Source: Dictyostelium discoideum
Taxonomy: Eukaryota
Length of the DNA stretch: 64,000 nucleotides
Direction: 5' to 3'
NCBI GenBank assembly: GCA_000004695.1
Contig: CM000151.3
Location: forward strand, 3,136,001-3,200,000
The notes under the pieces are model-generated. The model did not search any database. It was not told the origin of the DNA and saw only the letters and a list, made by a program, of their open reading frames with translations. The translations under genes were made by a program, and so were the position numbers. This document shows positions 8,766-63,942 of the stretch, one piece after another (the first letter of the stretch is position 1; every line of letters starts with the position of its first letter).

Positions 8766-9107
8766 AAAAAGAAATAATTATTTTTTTTTTTTTTTTGTTG
8801 GGGGTAATTATGTATATAATTTCAAAAAATGGTAATAATTAATAAGATCTCCTTTTTTGTGGGTGTTTTTGGTATAAATATTAATGAAATTATATGAAAA
8901 AAACTTTATTAATACCACCCATTAATTACTATTATTTTTTTTTTTTTTTTTGTTTTTTAATATTTTTTTTTTTTTTTTTTTATTTTAAAATAAAAACAAA
9001 AATTTAAAAAAAGATTTTTAAATTTGACAAGGGTTTTAACTTTTTTTTTTTTTTTTTTTTTTTTAATTTATAAAATCTAATTATTGAAACAAAATAAAAA
9101 TAGAATA

Positions 9108-9400: not shown

Positions 9401-9927
9401 TAATAATAAAAAAAAAAAATAAAAAATAAAAATTTAAAATAAAAAATAAAAAAAAATAATAATGAAACATAAAATATTTATAACAAACATAATAAATATT
9501 TAAAAATTTTTAAAAAAAAAAATTTATTGTTATTTTACATTAAATAAAAATAAATTAATAAATTTTTTAAAAATATTAAAGATTTTAAAAATTATTATTA
9601 TTTAATCTTTTTTTTTTATAATATCTCCAAACAATTTACTTGTTTTTTTTTTTTTAAATTAAATGATACCTCAATTATTTACTCATTTGTTTGATATATT
9701 AAAATTGAAAAGAGTGTTAATTAAAAAAAAAATTTCCATTTTTATATAAAATGGAAAAGTATTAATGTTTAATATATTCTTTTCATCTTTTAATTTTAAA
9801 ACAAATAGAAACTATTTTTTTTTTTTTTTTTTTTTTTTTCCTAAAAAGAATAAATAAATAAATTATAACAAGCTTAATAATAATAATAAAATTTAAAAAA
9901 AGAGTGAAAATTAAAATAATTATTTAT

Positions 9928-21360: not shown

Positions 21361-21832
21361 AAAAAAATATAGATATTAATATAAATAATAGTTAATTAAA
21401 AAAAAAAAAAAAAAAATAAACCTTTTTATTTTTATGGTTTTTTTATTTTTTTATTTTTTTTTTTTTTATTCTGATCAACGGTTAAAAATAGATGGCTAAT
21501 TTTTAAATCTAACATTAAAACAAACACACCCAAATTTGTAATGTTTTTTTTTAAACACACAATAATTTCACACACTTACAAATAAAAAAAAAAAAAAATA
21601 AATAAATTCAAAACAATTAAAAATAAAAAAAAAAATTAAATAAATAAAAAATAAAATAATTAATCATTTAAAAAAAAAAATAAAAAAATAAAAATAAAAA
21701 ATAATAACACATATTTCTTTTTCACTCTACATATACAACACACATTGATAAAATAATAGTTTCTTTCTTTTTTTTTTTCTTTTTTTTTTTTTTTTTTATT
21801 TATAATAATATTTAAATTTATTTTTAAAAATA

Positions 21833-24987: not shown

Positions 24988-25300
24988 CATTTAAAAAAAA
25001 GTGCAATCACTATAAAACCAATTAAATATATAAATAAATAAATTTAATAAATATAATATTTTAATAAATTTATTTATAATATGAATAGAAAAAGACGTAA
25101 ATTATAAAATCCTTTTTTTTTTTAATCAATTTTCACAAATTTATTATTTAATTATTATTTTTATTATTTTAAAAAATTTTTATATTAAAAATTATTTAAA
25201 AAGAAATTTATTTATTTGTTTATATCCCCTTCTCTTTTCCCTCCCCCTCCCCAAAAAAAAAAAAAAAAAAAACTAAATATTATAATATTAATTTAAAAGA

Positions 25301-36625: not shown

Positions 36626-37195
36626 TTAAAAAAAAAAAAAAAAAATATATTTAGTAAAAATAATAATATATTGGATATGATTGGGGGGTGTCTTTTTATA
36701 TTTTTTACTTTTTTTTTTTGTTTTTTGTTTTATTTTTTATTTTATTTTTTTATATCTTTGTTTTATTTGTCCATTTTTATTTTTTTTTTATTTTTTTTTT
36801 ATTTTTTTTTTTTGATGATTATTTTATTTGTCCACTTTTTTTTTTTTTTTTTTTGAAATAAATAAAATGACCCTTCGTTTGGAAAAATAAAATTATTAGA
36901 TCTAAATACAAATAATGATGGTTTTAGAATTCTTTAAAATAAAATACTATTTTAAATACTAATCTTTTATTTTTTAATTATTTTTGATGATCATTTAATT
37001 AAATAAAAAAAAAAAACATCATTTTTTGAGATTTTGGTAATAACTAATTGCTATTAATGATATGGCTTGAATTATGAACTGCCATAATAAAATTAATTCT
37101 GAGATTTAAGATTATTCTTAAAATTGTAGAAATGTTATTGAATGAAAATTATTGAGGTCATAACATATTTATAATTAAAAAATGATTAGAAAAAA

Positions 37196-38938: not shown

Positions 38939-39434
38939 TTATTTATATTGTTGATATTGTTGTTGGTGCATAAATCTTTGTTGGTTTTGAAAATTTTGTT
39001 GTTGATTTTGGAAGTTTTGTTGTTGTTGTTGATTTTGGTTTTGAAAGTTTTGTTGTTGGTTTTGGAAGTTTTGTTGTTGGTTTTGAAAGTTTTGCATTTG
39101 ATTCTGAAAGTTTTGTTGCTGTTGTTGGTTTTGAAAGTTTAGTTGTTGTTGGTTTTGAAAGTTTGGTTGTTGTTGTTGGTTTTGAAAGTTTGGCTGATTT
39201 TGGTGATAGTTTTGTTGTTGGTTCTGAAAGTTTTGTTGTCGTAATTGATTTTGAAAGTTTTGTTGTTGATTATTAAAGTTTAATAATTGATTTTGAAAAT
39301 TTTGTTGATTTTGAATATTTTGTTGTTGTTGATAGCTTGGAAGATATAATTGTTGATTGTTATTGTTGTTATTGTTGTTGCTGTGTTGTGGATGCTGATG
39401 TTGCTGATATTGATTTTGTTGTTGATGTTGTTGC

Positions 39435-39522
<88 letters not shown>

Positions 39523-40489
39523 GATATTGATTTTGATTTTGTTGTTGTGGATGTTGTTGTTGTTGTTGCTGTTGTTGTTGTTCAATTTTCTTAGATAAAT
39601 TTGAATTTAATTTAGGAGTATTATTACCACTAGTTGATAATGATTGTTTCTCATTTAGAAATGATTTAAACTCATCGATATACTGTGATAATTGAATACT
39701 TTCAACTTCATTACTTAAAATGATTTCGTTATCATCCTCTGGAATTTGTTGTTGATGATGTTGTTGAGTATTTTTAATTTTGTTTTTTTGTGGTGTCCAT
39801 TTGTATTTAAATGAGAAATCACCTATATTACCACCTTCATTATTATTGGAATTGGTTCTATGAATTGGTTCTAAACCATTCTCCATTCTTTTATTATCGA
39901 TCCATGCTATTAATGGTTTAACATATGATATAATAGCTGCAAATTGGTGTGATTGTCTACTATGAAATAATGGTAAATCATCAATTAAATGCCATTTAAT
40001 TCTCTATATTTAAATAAATATACATATATTAATATTTTATTTATTAATATTATTATATTTAATTATTTAATACATTACACTAATTTCATATCTTGTATGA
40101 GTTTCAAAATCAGTTAATTCATCAACACCAACACAAATGAAAAATTTTTTAATTACACCATGACTTTCTTTTTGAATGAATGCATCTTTTTTTATATAAG
40201 ATGAAATGTCGAAACCAATCTCTTCAAATACTTCTCTTGATGCACTTTGAGTTTCAGTTTCACCCTCTTTACCTTTACCTTTTGGAAAACCCCATCCCCA
40301 CCATTGTTCTTTAACCAATACAACTTTACTCATATCTTTATTTAATATAATTGCACCATATTTCGGTATTAATCTTTTGAATACTTCAAATTTTTTAACC
40401 ATACCACTATAAGTTGATGTATTTAATAATGCTGTATGAAATGGTAATAATCTTTCATTATTTTGTAATACTTTTATTTAATTTATTTT

Positions 40490-44974: not shown

Positions 44975-45009
<35 letters not shown>

Positions 45010-45157
45010 TAATTTTTAAAATATATCACAAAGTTATAAAATAATTTTTTTTTTTTTATATAATAAAAAAATCAATTAAATCAAATTAAAAATCATATAA
45101 TATCTTTTTTCTCAAAATATTAATTCTTTTTTTTATACAAATTTAAAGTAATATAAA

Positions 45158-47056
45158 ATGTCTTCCTCTATTGGTATTGATTTAGGTACAACTTACTCAT
45201 GTGTTGGTGTCTGGCAAAATGATCGTGTTGAAATCATTGCTAATGATCAAGGTAACAGAACCACCCCATCATACGTTGCTTTCAACGAAACTGAACGTTT
45301 AATTGGTGATGCTGCTAAGAATCAAGTTGCCATGAATCCAACCAACACCATCTTTGATGCCAAACGTTTAATTGGTCGTAAATTCTCTGATCCAGTTATC
45401 CAATCCGATATGAAACATTGGCCATTCAAAGTTATCGCCAAAGAAGGTGACAAACCACATCTCCAAGTTGAATTCAAAGGTGAAGTTAAAACTTTCTCAC
45501 CAGAAGAAGTCTCTTCAATGGTTCTCTTAAAGATGAAAGAAACCGCTGAAGCTTACCTCGGTAAAACCATCAACAACGCCGTTATCACCGTTCCAGCTTA
45601 TTTCAACGATAGCCAACGTCAAGCCACCAAAGATGCAGGTGCCATCGCTAAATTAAACGTCCAACGTATTATCAATGAACCAACTGCCGCCGCTATTGCC
45701 TATGGTCTCGAAAAGAAATCACAAGGTGAACGTAACATCTTAATTTTCGATTTAGGTGGTGGTACATTCGATGTTTCTCTCCTCACCATTGAAGATGGTG
45801 TCTTTGAAGTCAAAGCTACCGCTGGTGATACCCATTTAGGTGGTGAAGATTTTGATAACCGTCTCGTCAACCACTTTGTCGATGAATTCAAACGTAAACA
45901 CAAGAAAGACTTAATGACCAACCAACGTGCCCTCCGTCGTTTAAGAACTGCTTGTGAACGTGCCAAGAGAACTTTATCTTCATCTGCTCAAGCTTCAATT
46001 GAAATTGATTCCCTCTTTGAAGGTATTGATTTCTACACCTCAATCACCAGAGCTCGTTTCGAAGAATTATGCGCTGATCTCTTCCGTGGTTGTTTAGACC
46101 CAGTCGACAAAGTCTTAAAAGACTCCAAATTAGACAAGAAGACCATTCACGAAATCGTCTTAGTCGGTGGTTCAACTCGTATTCCAAAGGTTCAACAATT
46201 ATTACAAGATCATTTCAACGGTAAAGAACTCAACAAATCCATCAATCCAGATGAAGCCGTTGCCTATGGTGCTGCCGTCCAAGCTGCCATTCTCTCCAAC
46301 GAAGGTGGTGCTAAAGTTGCCGATATCTTATTATTAGATGTTGCTCCATTATCAATGGGTCTCGAAACCGCCGGTGGTGTCATGACTACCCTCATCCCAA
46401 GAAATACTACCATTCCATGCAAAAAGAACCAAACTTTCTCCACCTACTCTGATAACCAAACTGGTGTCTTAGTTCAAGTCTACGAAGGTGAACGTGCTAT
46501 GACTCGTGATAACAACTTATTAGGTAAATTCGAATTAACCAACATCCCACCAGCTCCACGTGGTGTCCCACAAATTGAAGTTACTTTCGATATCGATGCC
46601 AACGGTATCTTAAATGTCTCTGCTGAAGATAAGAGCACTGGTAACAAACACAAAATCACCATCACCAACGATAAAGGTAGACTCACTGCTGAACAAATCG
46701 AAAAGATGGTCAAAGATGCTGAAATGTTCAAAGCTCAAGATGAAGCCCAACGTGAAGTTGTTGAATCAAAGAACAAATTAGAAAACTACGCTTACACCGT
46801 TCGTAGCACCATTAAAGACGATAAGATCGCCGCCAAATTATCAAAAGAAGATCGTAAGACCGTCGAAGAGAAATCCGATGAAGCCATCAACTGGTTACAT
46901 GCCAACGACTCTGCCACTAAAGAAGAATACGAAAAAGCCATGAAAGATTTAGAAGCTGTTTGTTCACCAATCATCTCTAAAGTTTACGGTCAACAAGGTG
47001 GTGAAAACCCAGGTAACTTCTCTGGTGCCAAAACCACTGAAGAAGATTTAGATTAA
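45158..47056 (+). CDS. hspE: Cytosolic Hsp70/Hsc70 family chaperone of 632 aa, intronless
   Basis: Full-length Hsp70 with '[14 protein letters not shown]', '[10 protein letters not shown]', '[13 protein letters not shown]' and substrate-binding domain '[24 protein letters not shown]'. It is very close to, but not identical with, the Dictyostelium Hsc70-1 sequence as I recall it. The hspE (Hsc70-2) assignment is therefore from memory. Confidence 0.95.
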
Positions 47057-50825: not shown

Positions 50826-51307
50826 TTGAAAAATAATTATCAAAAAACAACTTTTTTTTTTTTTTTACTACCAATTATGGCAAGAAAAAAAATTTGGCAT
50901 TTATGGCAATAACAAAAAAAAATCTTTTTTAATAGTATTAAAAATTTTTTTTTTTTAATATGCCTATCCACTTTTTATGAAATATAATTTCTTATTTAAT
51001 TCACACAGTAACACACCCACCTGTGTAAAACAGATTTTTTTTATTACGATGTACTTCCACCCCCCCAATTTTTTTTTTTTTAATATATTCCCATCATTGG
51101 TATTGCTTCATACCATCAAAAAAATTAATTTTATTTTAATGTTTTTTAATATTAACCAAGTTAAAATAATTTTTTATTTTTTTTTTGATATTTTCACAAG
51201 AAATTTGTATTTTTTCCAATTTTTTTTTTTTTCAAATTAATTTATGGTTTTATTGTTGGCGGTATTTCTTTTTTATTTTTTTTTTACACATATTAAACAA
51301 TAATAAA

Positions 51308-51418: not shown

Positions 51419-51958
51419 ATGAATAATAATGAAATTCTATTTTGGAAAGTGTTTCACAACAAATATTTATTTAATTTAATATTTGAAATCATGGAAAACA
51501 GTGAATTATTCAACAACAATGAAATCAATTTTTTATTTGATAAAGATAAAAGAATTAAATTTAAATATATTTATAGTTTAAAATGGATGATTAAAAATAA
51601 CCAATTTCAATTATTAAAATCAAAATTAATAAATGATGAATATGTTTTTATTACCTACTCTAGTATCAGGCATTTAATCGAACTCTATTTAATTAATGAA
51701 AGTGAATATAATGGTAATAATAATATTCAATTATTAAGAAAGGAAGAATATTATTCTAATTATAATATATATAATATCTCTATTAAAATTGAATTATTTA
51801 AAGAAATATTACAATTAATACTTGAAAAAAGAGATTATAAATCATTAGATGATGATAAAATAATCCAATTAGCGTTATACCATGGTAGTTATGAAGTTAT
51901 TAAAATATTATTTGAATCCTTAAATTATATTAATAATAAAAATAATAATAATAAAAAT

Positions 51959-52046
<88 letters not shown>

Positions 52047-53884
52047 GTGGTGATGATGATAATACTAAAATAAATAAAGATAAAACTTTTGAATCATATA
52101 CTATGGAATCATGGAATGGAGATGGTTTTTATGGTTTCAACAAAATGAGTATGACTGGAAACAGAGTTCATGGTATTACATTAGAGAATATTATGTTAGA
52201 CCATCTTATATTAATAGGTCAACAACAAGAACAACAACCAAATCAATTTAATGAATATGTTTCATTTTTCATAAATAATAGGAATTGTAAAAAAAGGATT
52301 GGTGCAAAATTAGCAATAGATTTAGAAAAATTAGAAGTTTCAACAAATTTCAAAACAAATTATAAATTATTAGATTATATCAAAATCATATTTGATAAAG
52401 AAATTGAAAATTTTAATAATAACAATAATAATAATAAAGATAAATTAGAAATATTATTTGAATGTATTAAATTATATAGGGGAGAACATCCACCATTAGA
52501 ATCATTATTAAAACAAAATGATGATGAAACTATTCAAGAATTATTAAAACAATTAATCATTTTATCAAAATCAAAAACATTATTTGAATTATATTTATCA
52601 AAATATCATGATAATATAGGTGATGAATTAATTTCAATTGATAATTTTAAAGAAATTGCAATCGATTATTGCCTTTACAATTACATACCATCAATATTTA
52701 AACAAATTGACTTCACCATATATCATTTAAAAGTTTACCATGGCAATAACAATAAAGCAAATAAAATAATATCAAATTTAAAAAGATCAATCGAATTCTT
52801 AAGACTCCTTATATCAAAAATAAATTATAACCATTGTTTGAATGAAGAAGAAGAAGAAGAAAAAGAAGAAGAAGATGGTGATGATGATAATGATTATGAT
52901 GAAGAAGAAGAAGAAGAAAAAGAAGGAGAAGAAGAAGAAGAAGAAGAAGAAGAAGAAGAAGAAGAAGAAGAAGAAGAAGAAGAAGAAGAAGAAGAAGAAG
53001 AAGAAGAAGAAGGAAATCTATATATTAAAGATACAATTTTAAATATAATGTTACAAACTGATAAATCAACATATGAAGAATTATATAGTTTCATACCAAA
53101 TAAATATAAAAATAATTTACCATTGCACTGGAATCCAATTTTATCAAGTATTGGTAATTGTAATGTACTTTCAATTGCTAAAGATATTGAAACAATAAAT
53201 TTGCTTAGTAATTGGATAGAAGATATGGACTATAAATTATATAAAATTAATACAATTGATTTTTATTATGATTCGGTTGAATTATCAAATTATTTTATAA
53301 AATTACATTCAATAACAAAAAATTCAAATGGCTTTTATTTTGTACCATTTTTAAAGGCATTTGCTGAAAGTAATATCAATGATTTTAAATATTTTGACTC
53401 TTTGGGTCTTAAAATTGGAAATTATTTACATAAAGTACTATTTTCTTTAAATAAAAGATTATTAAATGAAGATGATGAATTAATATACCAAGAATATAAT
53501 ACAATGTTCAATTTTATATTAGATAGTCAAATGGGTGATCCTTCTAATGATCTTTACAAATTAGTTGAATATATAGCTAACAATGGTTATTATAAAGATG
53601 ATCAATATAATAATAGAACCAATTCAAATGAACATATAAAGTTTAATCTCTCAAAAATTAAAATCAATTTAAATAAAGAATTAATTAAAGATTTATTATC
53701 AAAAACATTAAATTATAATTTATCATCAAAAACATTAAATTATAATTTATCAAGATTGGTTGTCGAGAATTTAATCTTTACAAATAAAGAGTTGGATTTC
53801 AATATAAAATCAAATAAATATGACCCATTATTTATTAATTTAATAATTATTCAAATAAATAAATGTAGAGAAATAATTAAAATA

Positions 53885-53965
<81 letters not shown>

Positions 53966-54877
53966 TATAATAATAATAATAATAATAATAATTATAATAA
54001 TAATAATAGTATTGAAGACTCTTTTAAAACACAGCAAGCAAATTTAAAAATTTATTTAAGATTATTAGAAGTTTTATTTTATTGTAATTTTAGAAATTAT
54101 GAAAAAGGAGAGGATTTTGAAATAATTAACCAAATGTATGATGTTTTAATTGAAAATCAATATGAATTTCAAATTGAAAATAAACAATTAAAACTATTCT
54201 TAATATTTAAAAGATCACCAATATTGTATGAATATTTAAAAGATAAAGGAGATATTCATAAAACAATTAAAAAAACTATTAAAACAATATCTTTAGAATT
54301 CATTCAACAATCACCATTTGATGATTTAATTGATTCGGTTATATATCGTCCATATAAAGAAGAAGTAGAAATATTTGGTTACTCAAAATGTCAGGGAGTT
54401 ATTCAACGTAATTTACAACTATTCATTTTACTAAAAAGAAAAGATTTATTTTTAAAAGAGTTGGAATTAATTGGTTCAGGTGGTAAAGAAGAATTGAATT
54501 TTCCAAAATTTATAATTAAATGGTGCTGTCTTAATTTAGAATTAACATCAATAAATTATATATTTAAAGTAATCAAGAGTGAAAAGTCTTTAAATGAGGA
54601 TTTTTTTTTTAACTATTACAGGCCAACTAAAATATCAGAATTTTGTCTAGTATCATTACAATTGGGTAAAATTGAAATTACAAAATTATCATTCACAATT
54701 TTAAATAATTATTTTACACATTTTAGTTCATATGTACAAGAGTACTATCAAAATTTTAAAGACCAGGTTGAAAATTATAGCGAACATGATTATTTAATCA
54801 ACAGAAATTCATTAGCCGAACTACTACATGGCATTATTGGAGGATTAAAGCAAGCTAAAGAGTATGCCTATATGTAA
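51419..54877 (+). CDS. Large hypothetical protein of 1152 aa with poly-N and a 60-residue poly-E tract
   Basis: Uninterrupted ORF from the first ATG after an in-frame TGA. The non-repetitive regions are diverse and K/L/I/N-rich, as in real Dictyostelium proteins. A (GAA)n coding microsatellite lies at 52920-53010. No motif recognised. Confidence 0.65.
52920..53010. repeat. (GAA)n coding microsatellite (poly-E) inside the 1152-aa ORF
   Basis: A visible (gaa)n run of about 30 units. Confidence 0.9.
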
Positions 54878-55200
54878 TTAATGTTCAAAAAAAAATAAAA
54901 AAAAAAATTTAAATAACAAACTAAAAATAGAATAACTAAAGAGTGGATTTTTTGATAAAAAAAAAAAAATAAAAAAATAAAAAAAATAATAAAAAAAAAT
55001 AAAAAAATAAAAATTTCAAAAAAAAAAAAAAAAAAAAATAAAATAAAATTCAACAAGAGATTTATCGTTACCATTAATTAATTTTTTTTTTTTTTATTTT
55101 TTTTTTTTTTTTTGGTTTTTTAAAAATAAATTGTATACAAAAGGGATAATAATAAAAAAATAAATAAATAATAAATAAAAAACAAACAAATAAAAAAAAA

Positions 55201-56088
55201 ATGGCAGATAAAAGAGTACCATCAGTTCTAGTATCATCACTTCGTGTTGGTATGGGAAGCACATACCTAAAAACAAGAAAAGATGACACTGACAAGAATG
55301 ATAAAGATAGACAAAAAGAAGAATTAAGACAAAGAGAATTAAAATCATTAGAAAAGAAATCTGGTATTAAATTTGAAGATACCTCAATTGAAAATGATAA
55401 AGAATTATTAAAATTAAAGAATAGATTAATAAATGAAGAAGAAGAGGAAAATAATAAAACATCAACTACAACTACAACTACAACATCAAATATAAAGAAG
55501 AGAAAAGGTATAGACGATGATGATACAGATAGCGATGATAGTGATAGTGATAGTGATGATGATGATGATGATGATGATGATAACAATGGTTCAAAGAATA
55601 AATTTAAAAAAGTTGATAAAGATCATTCAGATAATAGTGAAAATAATGATTCAGATGACTCTGATGATTCAGATGATTCAGATGATGAAGAAGAATTAAT
55701 GAAAGAACTTGAAAAAATTAAAAAAGAAAAAGCAGAACAACAAAAGAAAAAAGAATTAGAGAGCCAACAAGAATTAGAAAAAGAGCGTTTAGAAAGAGTC
55801 GCTCATGGTAATCCTTTATTAAATAATACCAATAGTAATAATAACAATAATAATAGTAGTGGTGATTATTCTATAAAGAAAAAGTATGTAATATTTAATT
55901 TATTATTTCATGTTTGGTTTAGTATTATTATTAACATTTTTCTTTTTTTTTTCTATTGAAATAGTTGGTTTGACGATGGTGTTTTTAAAAATCAAGCTAG
56001 AGATGAACCCGTTGTAAAGAAGAGATTTATTAATGATACAACTAGAAGTGATTTTGCTAAAAAATTCTTATCAAAATATATAAAATAA
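55201..56088 (+). CDS. cwc15: Spliceosome-associated protein Cwc15 (AD-002 homolog), two exons
   Basis: Model: join(55201..55883, 55965..56088). Donor GTATGT at 55884 (phase 2); acceptor 'TTGAAATAG' at 55964. The N-terminus is '[12 protein letters not shown]', followed by acidic D/S repeats. '[23 protein letters not shown]...[14 protein letters not shown]' matches human '[16 protein letters not shown]...ENILSGNPLLN'. The exon-2 C-terminus '[41 protein letters not shown]' matches human '[44 protein letters not shown]'. Confidence 0.9.
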
Positions 56089-56181: not shown

Positions 56182-56967
56182 TTATTGACTATTATTATTA
56201 TTATTATTAAAAGGTACAATTTTTAAATCACTACTACTTGGATCACCAAAAAGGATTTCAAAACTATTTGAGTGCTTAAGATTTCCATCAATACTAGAGG
56301 CACCTATGTCGATATTCTCTTCTTCTAAAATATATTTTATAACATCACCAATAAAATGATTAATATATGAGTCCAATATGTCAAATCTAATAGTTTCTCT
56401 AATTTCTGACAGAGTTCTTCCTGGTGAATCATTTGAATTAATTCTATCACATATTGATGAAGTTAGAACTGTCAAACATTCATTAGACTCACAACCTAGA
56501 TCTCTATTTAACCTTAAAATTGGAGAAACTAAATAAATATTACCTAATAATTATTTTAATTAGAACAAACTTTTGTTTTTGATTTTGATTTTTTTTTTTT
56601 TTTTTTTTTTCTTCTAAAAATAAAATTAAATATATATTATTTACCAAAATCTGTATCCTTTGAAATTTCTTTTATTATATCATTATTAAATTCTCCTTTA
56701 TAAAGTTCATTGAAAAAACATTTTGCTTCTTTTTCCATATCATAAACATCTAAAATAAATAAATTTTTAAATGAAGTGAATTTACCTTTTTTAAAATTAT
56801 CATTTTCTTTTTTTTTTTTTTTGGAAATAAAAAAAAACATATATATATTTTAATATTAATTATATTTTAAACCTATTATAATTTAATAATCAATTGATTA
56901 TTACATACTTGTTTTTTTCTGGTGAAATTTTAATATTTCGATCATTGATTTTATAACTTTAATATTC

Positions 56968-57065
<98 letters not shown>

Positions 57066-57908
57066 GTTATCGTTATTGTTATTAATACTTTCAATTTTGA
57101 TTTTTAGATTATCAAATTCTTTTTCAACATTAAATGAGTTAATAGGTGATTTATTGTTATTATTAAAGGTTGGGACAAGTATTTTTGAAGGTTCTGATTT
57201 ATATATATTATCATTTTTAAATTCATTTATTGAATTAAAAAATTTTTCATTTCTGTCATCTTCGTTGGTTGAATGATAATAAAGTATAATATCTAATTCT
57301 GGATATAGAGGAAGAATTGAATAAACTTTTCGATGAAATGAATATATATTACTAAAGGTAAAACATTCAGTGCCTTTTTTTAAAAATGATTTTTTAATTT
57401 CTATTATATTTTGATTTTTTAATTCATTTTCATTTTCATTGAAAATTAAACATATCACTTTTCTATTTCCAGGTTTTTCTTTATAAGTTTCAATTTTATT
57501 ATTACTATTAGTATTAACTTGGCTATTTGAATTAAAGATTATTGATCCACTTGATTGTGAACCAAAAAATATATTAAAATTGTCAAATAATTGATTTTTT
57601 AAGTTATATGGAATCATTTGGTAATTTTTCTTCAAAAGAGTTTCTAAATTATTTAAATTACCAAAATACTTTGTAATGTAATTATCTAAAATAATACCCT
57701 TCATTTTAACAATCTTATTTGATAATACTTCTTTATCATTTGATTCTAATGTATCACATAGTAATTCTAAAAATGGTGAAGCTTCACCATTAATTGTTGT
57801 AGTTGTTACAATTGTAGTTGTAGTAGTTGTTGTATTATCATTAATTCTATATGATGAAGATGTTGTTGTAGTAGTAGTTGAATTATTATTATTAATATTA
57901 TTATTTGC

Positions 57909-57943
<35 letters not shown>

Positions 57944-58872
57944 TAATATAATTATTATTATTATTCAAATAATCAAATAATAAATGTGAATGTATAAATG
58001 AAATATCTTAAAAATAAATAAATTAGTATCTTAAAATTATTATTATTATTATTATTATTATTTAAAATTTACAAATGATAATTATTTAAAAATACTTACT
58101 ATCCATTGTTGGTAGGTTTAATATTTCATTGGGAGAATTATAAAGTTGAAATAATTTTTCTAATGGGTTATTATTATTATTGTTATTGTTATTATTATAA
58201 AATAAATCTAAAATAAATATCTTTTCCCATGATAGCATTACTCCTTTTTTGAAATGTAAATTTTCTTAAAATTATTTAGTTTGAAAAAAAAAAAAAAAAT
58301 ATTTTGGTAATTATTTTATATATAAATTGTTGAGAAAATTAAAAAAAATATACATACTGAATTCATCTTCTTTTGTTTTTAATAAACCTATCAAACTATT
58401 TAAAAAAAATTTTATTTCACGGGTTATTTTAGAACCTTGATATATTTCAACTAATGATGAAAGTTTAATTTTATTATCTTCTAATTGGTATGGCCCATAA
58501 ATATAAAATAAAAACATTGCTTTTGTATTATCAGACTTTAGATCTTTTACAATTGTTTTAAATACATTTCTTAAATCATCATTTATATTATCGAAACAAA
58601 TGACTTCAAATCCAAATGGAGTTAAAGTTTCTTTTAATTTTAATTTATTGCTTATTGCATTCATATCATTTACATTCCAAACAATGATATAACAAATTTT
58701 TTTTATAATTTTTGATATGTGTTCCTTTAATATTTAAAATTAAAAAAAGAGTATAAGTATTTGAAAGAAAAGAAAAGAAAAAAAAAAAAAAAAAAAAAAT
58801 TACCAAAACATTATTTTTAATATCACTGTTTTTATTATTCTCTAATTGGCTTGCGTCACCTTCTATATTCAT
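56182..58872 (-). CDS. Six-exon orphan gene of 720 codons; contains two internal copies of a hydrophobic-strand module and long poly-N/T tracts
   Basis: Model: complement(join(56182..56528, 56645..56749, 56909..58006, 58091..58264, 58358..58724, 58804..58872)). Donors are GTAATT, GTATGT, GTAAGT, GTATGT and GTAAAT. Acceptors are all (A/T)nAG. Phases are 0, 1, 1, 1, 1, and every exon frame matches an ORF-track ORF (58666..58872, 58311..58664, 56901..57968, 56637..56840, 56182..56475). Module 1: 'KICYIIVWNVNDMNAISNKLKLKETLTPFGFEVICFDNINDDLRNVFKTIVKDLKSDNTKAMFLFYIYGPYQ'. Module 2: 'RKVICLIFNENENELKNQNIIEIKKSFLKKGTECFTFSNIYSFHRKVYSILPLYPELDIILYYHST'. Confidence 0.6.
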
Positions 58873-59029
58873 TTTTTTATTTTATTGAATTATCTTATAA
58901 TAAAGAAAAAAATAAGAGTAGAAAAAAAAAAAAAAAAAAATATAAGGAAAAAAAAAAATTAAAAAATTAAAAATTAAAAATTAAAAATTAAATTAAAAAT
59001 AAATTCATTTTTTAATTTTGGGTAAAATT

Positions 59030-59078
59030 GATTGGGGAATCAATTGGGGTGGGTGGGAATGGGGGACCACTAAAAATA
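59030..59078. promoter_or_regulatory. G-rich, G-box-like element in the promoter region of the minus-strand orphan gene and 3' of the Roco kinase gene
   Basis: 'gattggggaatcaattggggtgggtgggaatgggggaccac': five G3-5 runs within 40 nt in an otherwise >80% AT intergenic region. It lies about 160-200 bp upstream (minus orientation) of ATG 58872. Confidence 0.35.
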
Positions 59079-59190
59079 AAAAATAAAATTTGTTATCATT
59101 TTTAATAAAAAAATCCAAAAATAGTATTATTATTATTATCATTTTTATCATTTTTATTATTATTATTTTTATTTTTATTTTTTAAATTAT

Positions 59191-63942
<4,752 letters not shown>

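Follow-up and report, generated by a model that had tools for sequence, protein, structure and literature searches.

A fast-evolving gene encoding two tandem units, apparently restricted to the Dictyostelium discoideum complex, and the G-run in its upstream spacer

What does the gene that lies between a Roco-family kinase gene and cwc15 in Dictyostelium discoideum encode, and does the G-rich element upstream of it contribute to its regulation? The locus occupies positions 56182-59190 of the window analysed here, a stretch of 64,000 nucleotides (contig CM000151.3, positions 3,136,001 to 3,200,000, of assembly GCA_000004695.1), to which all coordinates refer. An earlier note had described it as a six-exon gene of no recognisable family, with a duplicated module of about 70 aa and a G-box-like promoter element. 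Taking the locus as a whole, the explanation that we consider best, and hold with moderate confidence, is that of a clade-restricted gene whose product comprises tandem alpha/beta units, probably acts as a pseudo-dimer scaffold and would be transcribed from a spacer promoter carrying a recent G-run.

We found that six minus-strand exons, from 58872 to 56182, are joined by GT..AG introns with phases 0, 1, 1, 1 and 1. All five introns are 79-116 nt long with GTAA/GTAT...AG borders, and their GC content is 7.5-11.4%, compared with 17.6-27.1% in the exons. The window, at ~20% GC with short GT..AG introns, is Dictyostelium-like. Exon 1 (58804-58872) starts with the ATG at 58872-58870, comprises 23 codons and ends in phase 0; the N-terminus that it encodes is conserved in both orthologues described below, and the position of the intron that follows is common to both. 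Exon 6 (56182-56543) ends with the stop codon TAA at 56184-56182. At its start, two in-frame acceptors were found 15 nt apart at 56528-56543 (ttattAG/GTAATATTTATTTAG/TT), of which the alternative at 56528 drops the residues GNIYL. Acceptor 56543 yields a product of 740 aa and acceptor 56528 one of 735 aa, and both isoforms could be made. Because the last exon opens with coding sequence for G-x-x-Y-L-x-S-P in both orthologues, acceptor 56543, giving 740 aa, is the better model. The 720 codons counted previously were about 3% too few.

Among 5.8 billion protein clusters, a word-indexed search recovered a sole relative, a hypothetical protein of 719 aa from Dictyostelium cf. discoideum (ACTFIZ_010981). 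When 1.84 billion representative proteins were searched exhaustively with HMMER, with ACTFIZ_010981 alone as the query, only RB653_010632 (KAK5575373.1), a protein of 623 aa from D. firmibasis, was added. Outside low-complexity tracts, the window protein is 78% identical to ACTFIZ_010981 and about 44% identical to KAK5575373.1. The order Roco kinase gene, focal gene, cwc15 was found to be collinear in the D. cf. discoideum locus (L001), and the D. firmibasis locus is also syntenic. The annotated ACTFIZ_010981 model has six exons of 72, 367, 171, 1032, 162 and 356 nt with phases identical to those of the window gene, while the D. firmibasis model shares all five intron positions and has one extra intron.

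We compared the coding sequences of the window gene and its L001 orthologue and obtained 0.109 nonsynonymous (Ka) and 0.210 synonymous (Ks) substitutions per site, or a Ka/Ks of 0.52 over 691 codons, even along the protein. Nonsynonymous changes per site were significantly below synonymous ones (Fisher p 2e-5). At the same Ks, the neighbouring Roco and Cwc15 genes have Ka/Ks values of 0.23 and 0.17, so that the focal protein evolves 2-3 times faster than its neighbours, yet under purifying selection. The fairly high Ka/Ks of 0.52 and the alternative in-frame acceptor are what could be expected if the model were an artefact that joined exons of separate genes, or if it were a decaying pseudogene. 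Such an origin is very improbable, given open frames and frame-preserving exon indels in three species, conserved intron positions and phases, significant purifying selection and the independent annotation of the same single gene in two other genomes. Orthologues, synteny, intron conservation and a Ka/Ks below 1 thus agree with the earlier proposal that the six fragments form one gene, and from these comparisons the locus is judged to be one genuine protein-coding gene, fast-evolving under a constraint that is relaxed yet real. There is indirect support for expression of the locus, or for an annotated counterpart in D. discoideum; the D. firmibasis annotation was made with MAKER from transcript and protein evidence only (PMC11193728).

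The distribution of the gene was found to be narrow. Beyond the D. discoideum complex, no relatives were detected in the 1.84 billion proteins searched with HMMER, in the 5.8 billion clusters or in a scan of JGI metagenomes, and tblastn of the protein against the 64-kb window found no paralogue. Searches of Pfam, NCBIfam and the PDB sequences with the whole protein, the six single units defined below and the unit profiles returned no family match beyond noise or low complexity. The orphan status given to the gene earlier was therefore borne out, with relatives only in D. cf. discoideum and D. firmibasis. As far as these searches reach, the gene is taxonomically restricted to the D. discoideum species complex, and it is under selection there. 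The protein is an ordinary lineage-specific hypothetical protein, one of the many in Dictyostelium that evolve fast.

We then examined the internal repeat. When profiles of the two parts of the protein, each built from three species, were aligned with hhalign, they matched with a probability of 96.8% (E 3.1e-10) over 253 columns. Plain BLASTP of the N-terminal half against the C-terminal half detected only the C-terminal 177 aa of the units (29% identity, E 7e-9), a match that comes after the two modules described earlier. The hhalign alignment begins at these modules, module 1 at 58700-58485 and module 2 at 57461-57267, where KKICYIIVWNVND stands opposite RKVICLIFNENENE, and continues in the same register through the pairs GFEVICFDNI/GTECFTFSNI and AMFLFYIYGP/LDIILYYHS. 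Both modules are thus present in the register that had been proposed, but the true repeat is the whole unit of ~300 aa rather than a module of ~70 aa. By the hhalign and BLASTP matches, repeat unit 1 covers approximately aa 16-397 (57519-58827 on the minus strand, introns included). Repeat unit 2 covers approximately aa 401-732 (56209-57500, minus strand, introns included), as delimited by BLASTP, the unit alignment and hhalign. Two units of ~280-320 aa in tandem thus make up the whole protein.

The remaining exons, all on the minus strand, can be placed on this scheme. Exon 2 (58358-58724, 367 nt, like the orthologous exon in D. cf. discoideum) encodes the predicted N-terminal beta-alpha-beta-alpha-beta part of unit 1, including module 1. 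Exon 3 (58100-58264, 165 nt) carries the invariant unit 1 strand 'WEKIFILD', in which I-L-D is found in all six units, followed by a poly-N tract. Exon 4 (56909-58006, 1098 nt) encodes poly-N/poly-T low complexity, the helical C-terminal half of unit 1 and the N-terminal half of unit 2, including module 2, with a poly-N tract of 33 residues. Exon 5 (56645-56806, 162 nt) carries the unit 2 strand 'FKNLFILD' and is 94% identical in nucleotide sequence to its D. cf. discoideum orthologue, with no indels. Poly-N and poly-T tracts were found to be inserted after the fourth strand and in the next loop of the units.

The six units (two from each of three species) are otherwise only 21-29% identical. 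Among the residues invariant in six of six, strand 2 has G-x-E, strand 3 has a Tyr, and strand 4 is preceded by K-G and ends in I-L-D. The C-terminal half adds C-D...S, in its first long helix, and L-S and a terminal F-G are likewise invariant. The best-conserved motif of the family, [LS][LIV]-C-D-x-[IL]-[EN]-S, lies in the helical region.

What fold these units adopt was approached by prediction. The protein is predicted to be soluble, as both a signal peptide and a transmembrane segment are absent; the maximum Kyte-Doolittle mean over 19 residues is 0.93. Generic alpha/beta folds were among the matches for the unit. AlphaFold2, given full-length ACTFIZ_010981 as a single sequence, returned a predicted local distance difference test (pLDDT) score of 32. 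For unit 2 of D. firmibasis, which is the most compact, a four-row unit alignment gave a mean pLDDT of 40; in this model, residues 16-98 form beta-alpha-beta-alpha-beta-alpha at pLDDT 45-69, while the remainder is helical and below 50. The signature motifs of TIR, receiver (CheY), vWA/MIDAS, P-loop, HAD and Toprim domains were absent on inspection of the sequence.

The protein arose by tandem duplication of one unit of ~280-320 aa. We propose that the N-terminal half of each unit, with the order beta-alpha-beta-alpha-beta-alpha, is of the three-layer alpha/beta (Rossmann/flavodoxin-like) type. This half would lead into the invariant hydrophobic strand ending in I-L-D and then an insertion-tolerant linker with the poly-N/poly-T tracts, and the unit would close with the helical region bearing the [LS][LIV]-C-D-x-[IL]-[EN]-S motif and a last strand ending in F-G. 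The two units may pack against each other as an intramolecular pseudo-dimer. As the protein lacks any known catalytic constellation and most of its invariant residues are hydrophobic or structural, it is probably a non-catalytic scaffold or adaptor and not an enzyme.

Several points weigh against this proposal. The fold is not established, with pLDDT values of 32 and 40 for the two models and of less than 50 in the C-terminal half of the unit, and both the pseudo-dimer and the scaffold role are statements that we infer. In addition, the invariant Cys-Asp pair, the strand-end Asp and the Glu could form an active or metal site of an unrecognised kind. The protein would then be an active enzyme of a new type, or a metal or ligand binder, acting through the residues kept in six units. 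The candidates for such a site, namely the Glu after the G of strand 2, the Asp of I-L-D and the Cys-Asp...Ser helix motif, are invariant although the units are so divergent, and in alpha/beta sandwiches functional residues typically lie at the C-terminal ends of strands. We nevertheless consider this quite improbable. No catalytic family was matched, Ka/Ks is 0.5-0.6 in every segment, which is high for an enzyme core, the site would need to be kept in both copies, and a clustering of the invariant residues in space is putative.

The earlier note had also seen a loosely caspase- or Rossmann-like alternation of strands and helices without a catalytic His/Cys dyad. The alpha/beta character stands, while a caspase-like fold is not established. 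Under this interpretation, each unit would be a highly diverged domain of the caspase-hemoglobinase fold (clan CD/Peptidase C14), which has a six-stranded sheet in the order 2-1-3-4-5-6 with an antiparallel last strand. The unit would be most like a paracaspase and would have lost its nucleophile, and the protein would be a tandem pseudo-caspase serving as a scaffold or decoy that mimics a caspase dimer. We compared the unit with a profile of vertebrate paracaspases and with a broader C14 profile, comprising vertebrate sequences plus 15 bacterial caspase-like proteins from genome contigs. The family was picked after reading the sequence, and the nominal P values are therefore optimistic. Full-length hhalign gave P 0.34 against the paracaspases and P 0.21 against the broader C14 profile; the global mode was uninformative. 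In the full-length block-shuffle control, 17 of 120 shuffles reached the real score (empirical p ~0.14). Nominal significance was reached only by the C-terminal half of the unit, which gave P 0.013 against the C-terminal half of C14, a score that 2 of 150 block shuffles attained. The N-terminal half gave P 0.067, a score that 28 of 150 shuffles reached.

Other evidence on the caspase question is similarly divided. The Pfam family PF00656 did not match the whole protein at E up to 10 and matched one of the six units, unit 1, in the right register (profile positions 22-77) at a sub-threshold E of 0.09, with 12.9 bits against a cut-off of 21.4. The signal was absent in the other five units, unrelated Pfam families scored equally well or better, and the unit profile found no caspase among the PDB sequences at E up to 10. 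No unit reached the PF00656 gathering score. We do not assign the protein to C14. In the extended hhalign alignment, the anchors are all collinear in the expected register: 'FILD-[LVTY]-[FYN]' is aligned with the paracaspase 'FLLD-M-C', 'FLFYIYGP'/'IILYYHS' with 'LLYYAGHG', and 'FTSSxCDRI' with 'IFMKFLKDRL'. The large low-complexity insertions sit at what we take, from this alignment and from caspase structures, to be the inter-subunit linker and the substrate-groove loop, which would also favour a caspase fold. In a control, the paracaspase profile recognised true caspases of the PDB at no better than E 0.07-2, and because bona fide caspases score so poorly, a caspase fold is compatible with the non-significant scores of the unit.

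If the units do have a caspase fold, they would be protease-dead, as neither retains the nucleophile Cys and only unit 2 retains the His. The catalytic His-Cys dyad of C14 follows strands 3 and 4. In the hhalign register and the unit alignment, the Cys position is occupied by Phe in unit 1 of the window protein and ACTFIZ_010981, by Asn in unit 1 of D. firmibasis and by Tyr in unit 2 of each of the three species. At the His position, unit 1 has Tyr/Gly-Pro, and a His occurs only in unit 2 (YYHS/YFHE). This agrees with the earlier remark that a dyad was lacking. Taken together, we regard a tandem pseudo-caspase as doubtful, though clearly more probable than an active enzyme. Apart from a single paracaspase, Dictyostelium is not known to have a caspase-family member, and Dictyostelium cell death is independent of that protein. 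A more specific proposal, in which two protease-dead caspase-fold domains (a tandem pseudo-paracaspase) in one chain were born and rapidly diverged within the D. discoideum complex, beside a Roco (DAPK-like) kinase gene, and serve as scaffold or decoy in a pathway of signalling or related to cell death that is specific to the lineage, is slightly more doubtful still. We retain the clade-restricted pair of alpha/beta units as the preferred description of the protein.

The second question concerns the spacer upstream of the gene. The Roco kinase stop codon and the ATG of the focal gene are separated by 318 nt with 13.5% GC (58873-59190, on the minus strand as read from the two genes), which presumably hold the 3' end of the Roco gene and the focal promoter. 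Transcription would start from this compact spacer. The G-run cluster reported earlier is present as quoted, ggggaatcaattggggtgggtgggaatggggg, at 59034-59065 on the plus strand (32 nt). This places it 162-193 nt before the ATG and 126-157 nt past the Roco stop codon. In both flanking genes, the G-rich strand serves as the template. The run contains a canonical G-quadruplex (G4) motif, GGGGTGGGTGGGAATGGGGG, at 59046-59065 with loops of 1, 1 and 3 nt, which is the sole match to four G3+ runs separated by N1-7 on either strand of the 64 kb. The run is also the only 32-nt stretch in the 64 kb with at least 16 G, far from the expectation for intergenic DNA of 13.5% GC. The only other strongly G- or C-biased 32-nt stretch, at 25219-25259, consists of a C-rich run (ccccttctcttttccctccccctcccc) with 25 A after it and lies in AT-rich intergenic DNA.

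The resemblance to the G-box/CAE elements bound by the developmental factor GBF could be upheld in part. The GBF response element has the consensus (T/G)G(T/G)G(T/G)G(T/G) (PMC2257962), and this heptamer, KGKGKGK, was found in three overlapping matches that form one contiguous block at 59046-59056. For the flanking GGGG and GGGGG runs to serve as a second site, a mismatch must be allowed. In the window as a whole, KGKGKGK occurs 41 times in ~20 clusters, against 23 +/- 5.5 expected, and none of 100 shuffles reached 41. G-rich boxes as a class look enriched, but one match says little. Other clusters were located at 51011-51067 (~350 nt upstream of an open reading frame (ORF) that starts at 51419), 8799-8921, 21524-21561 and 36682-36691.

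The part of the resemblance that did not hold is conservation, as the run is not conserved in the orthologous spacers. The spacer aligns with that of D. cf. discoideum at ~73% column identity with large indels. Within the run, the homologous stretch, GTCACCTCCCCCCACCTGATC, is only ~50% identical, below its flanks, with the heptamer GGTGGGG kept. The D. firmibasis spacer contains no G-run and a lone TGTGGGT. Because of this low identity in the sister species and the absence of a G-run in D. firmibasis, the G4/G-box cluster appears to be a species-specific elaboration. It may be a recent expansion of an ancestral GTCACCC element. The D. cf. discoideum spacer (L001 9547-9862) has features of its own that are absent from the window, namely a tandem duplication of ~149 nt and a near-perfect palindrome with 48-nt arms at 9657-9704 and 9714-9761 (85% complementary, 9-nt spacer), the centre of which is AGTGGTCACCCAATC/AGTGGTCACCCAATCGAT.

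Whether the G-run is a functional GBF-type G-box/CAE, which would make the gene post-aggregative and dependent on cyclic AMP and GBF, can be weighed from these observations. Three overlapping consensus matches, their position within 200 nt of the ATG in a 318-nt spacer, the over-representation of the heptamer in the window, and the GGTGGGG kept at the homologous place in the sister species together with the TGTGGGT of the D. firmibasis spacer would all be in line with such a role. Against this, the consensus is loose enough to give ~20 clusters in 64 kb, a separate second half-site exists only with a mismatch, and the run is less conserved than its flanks in a sister-species spacer that has undergone duplication and carries a palindrome, and is missing in D. 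firmibasis. We regard this role as possible and rather unlikely, with about the same degree of doubt as for a caspase fold. The G-run may be functional, with the G-box and the G4 being statements at the level of motifs, and it may add GBF-type or G4-type regulation to the gene without being a conserved requirement of the locus.

The upstream neighbour of the focal gene is a Roco-family kinase gene on the minus strand (ORFs 59191-63147 and 63169-63942) with LRR, Roc GTPase, COR-A, COR-B and Tyr/Ser-Thr-type kinase domains. It encodes ~1,600 aa in two or more exons, and its protein is 92.6% identical to the D. cf. discoideum orthologue. The downstream neighbour is a convergent Cwf15/Cwc15 gene on the plus strand (55201-55959). 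Beyond it, an ORF of 1152 aa at 51419-54877 on the plus strand had no Pfam match, and its 3' part (~53400-54940) matched five places in L001 (14226-22597) with 78-84% nucleotide identity. This suggests a tandemly amplified gene family beside cwc15 in D. cf. discoideum. Two composition outliers were observed elsewhere in the window, one at 39001-40000 (GC skew +0.55, AT skew -0.43) and one at 45001-47000 (36-41% GC). Rfam and transfer RNA (tRNA) scans found neither Rfam families nor tRNA genes in the flagged region or in the whole 64-kb window.

The results document one more taxonomically restricted, fast-evolving Dictyostelium gene and provide a clean case of whole-domain tandem duplication in which the extent of the repeat has been corrected. 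Confirmation of a caspase fold would give the finding greater weight. In that case, a family of protease-dead clan CD scaffolds confined to the D. discoideum complex would offer a new handle on how this fold is reused for non-proteolytic roles. The G-run, which is present, degraded or absent across three species, offers a natural test case for isolated G4/G-box elements in a background of 86% AT.

Finally, we compared the locus with known systems. The closest are the orthologues ACTFIZ_010981 and KAK5575373.1, which are like the window protein in two-unit architecture, in their locus between the Roco kinase gene and cwc15 and in intron positions, and differ from it in the lengths of the low-complexity tracts. 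Unit 2 of D. firmibasis lacks an insertion of ~60 aa and its gene model has the extra intron; all three proteins are uncharacterised. Among generic three-layer alpha/beta sandwiches, the unit was compared with flavodoxin-like receiver domains, lumazine synthase and designed Rossmann 2x2 folds. With Peptidase C14 (caspases, paracaspases such as MALT1, metacaspases and bacterial caspase-like proteins), the predicted order of strands and helices and the domain length of ~250 aa line up with the unit. The likeness extends to the hydrophobic strand ending in L-D-x-(Cys position), the aromatic-rich strand before the His position and the F-x-x-S-x-C/L-D-R-[IL] helix, and the tandem units could mimic a caspase dimer. 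The differences are that the similarity in sequence and profile is not significant, that the catalytic Cys is in neither unit and the His in unit 2 only, and that the fold is putative. The spacer, in turn, resembles GBF-regulated post-aggregative promoters, such as those of the sigN genes with their paired G-rich boxes, in having a consensus-matching G-rich element within a short AT-rich upstream region. Those promoters have pairs of closely spaced sites, whereas the element described here, known from its sequence, is one compact block that is poorly conserved among orthologous spacers.

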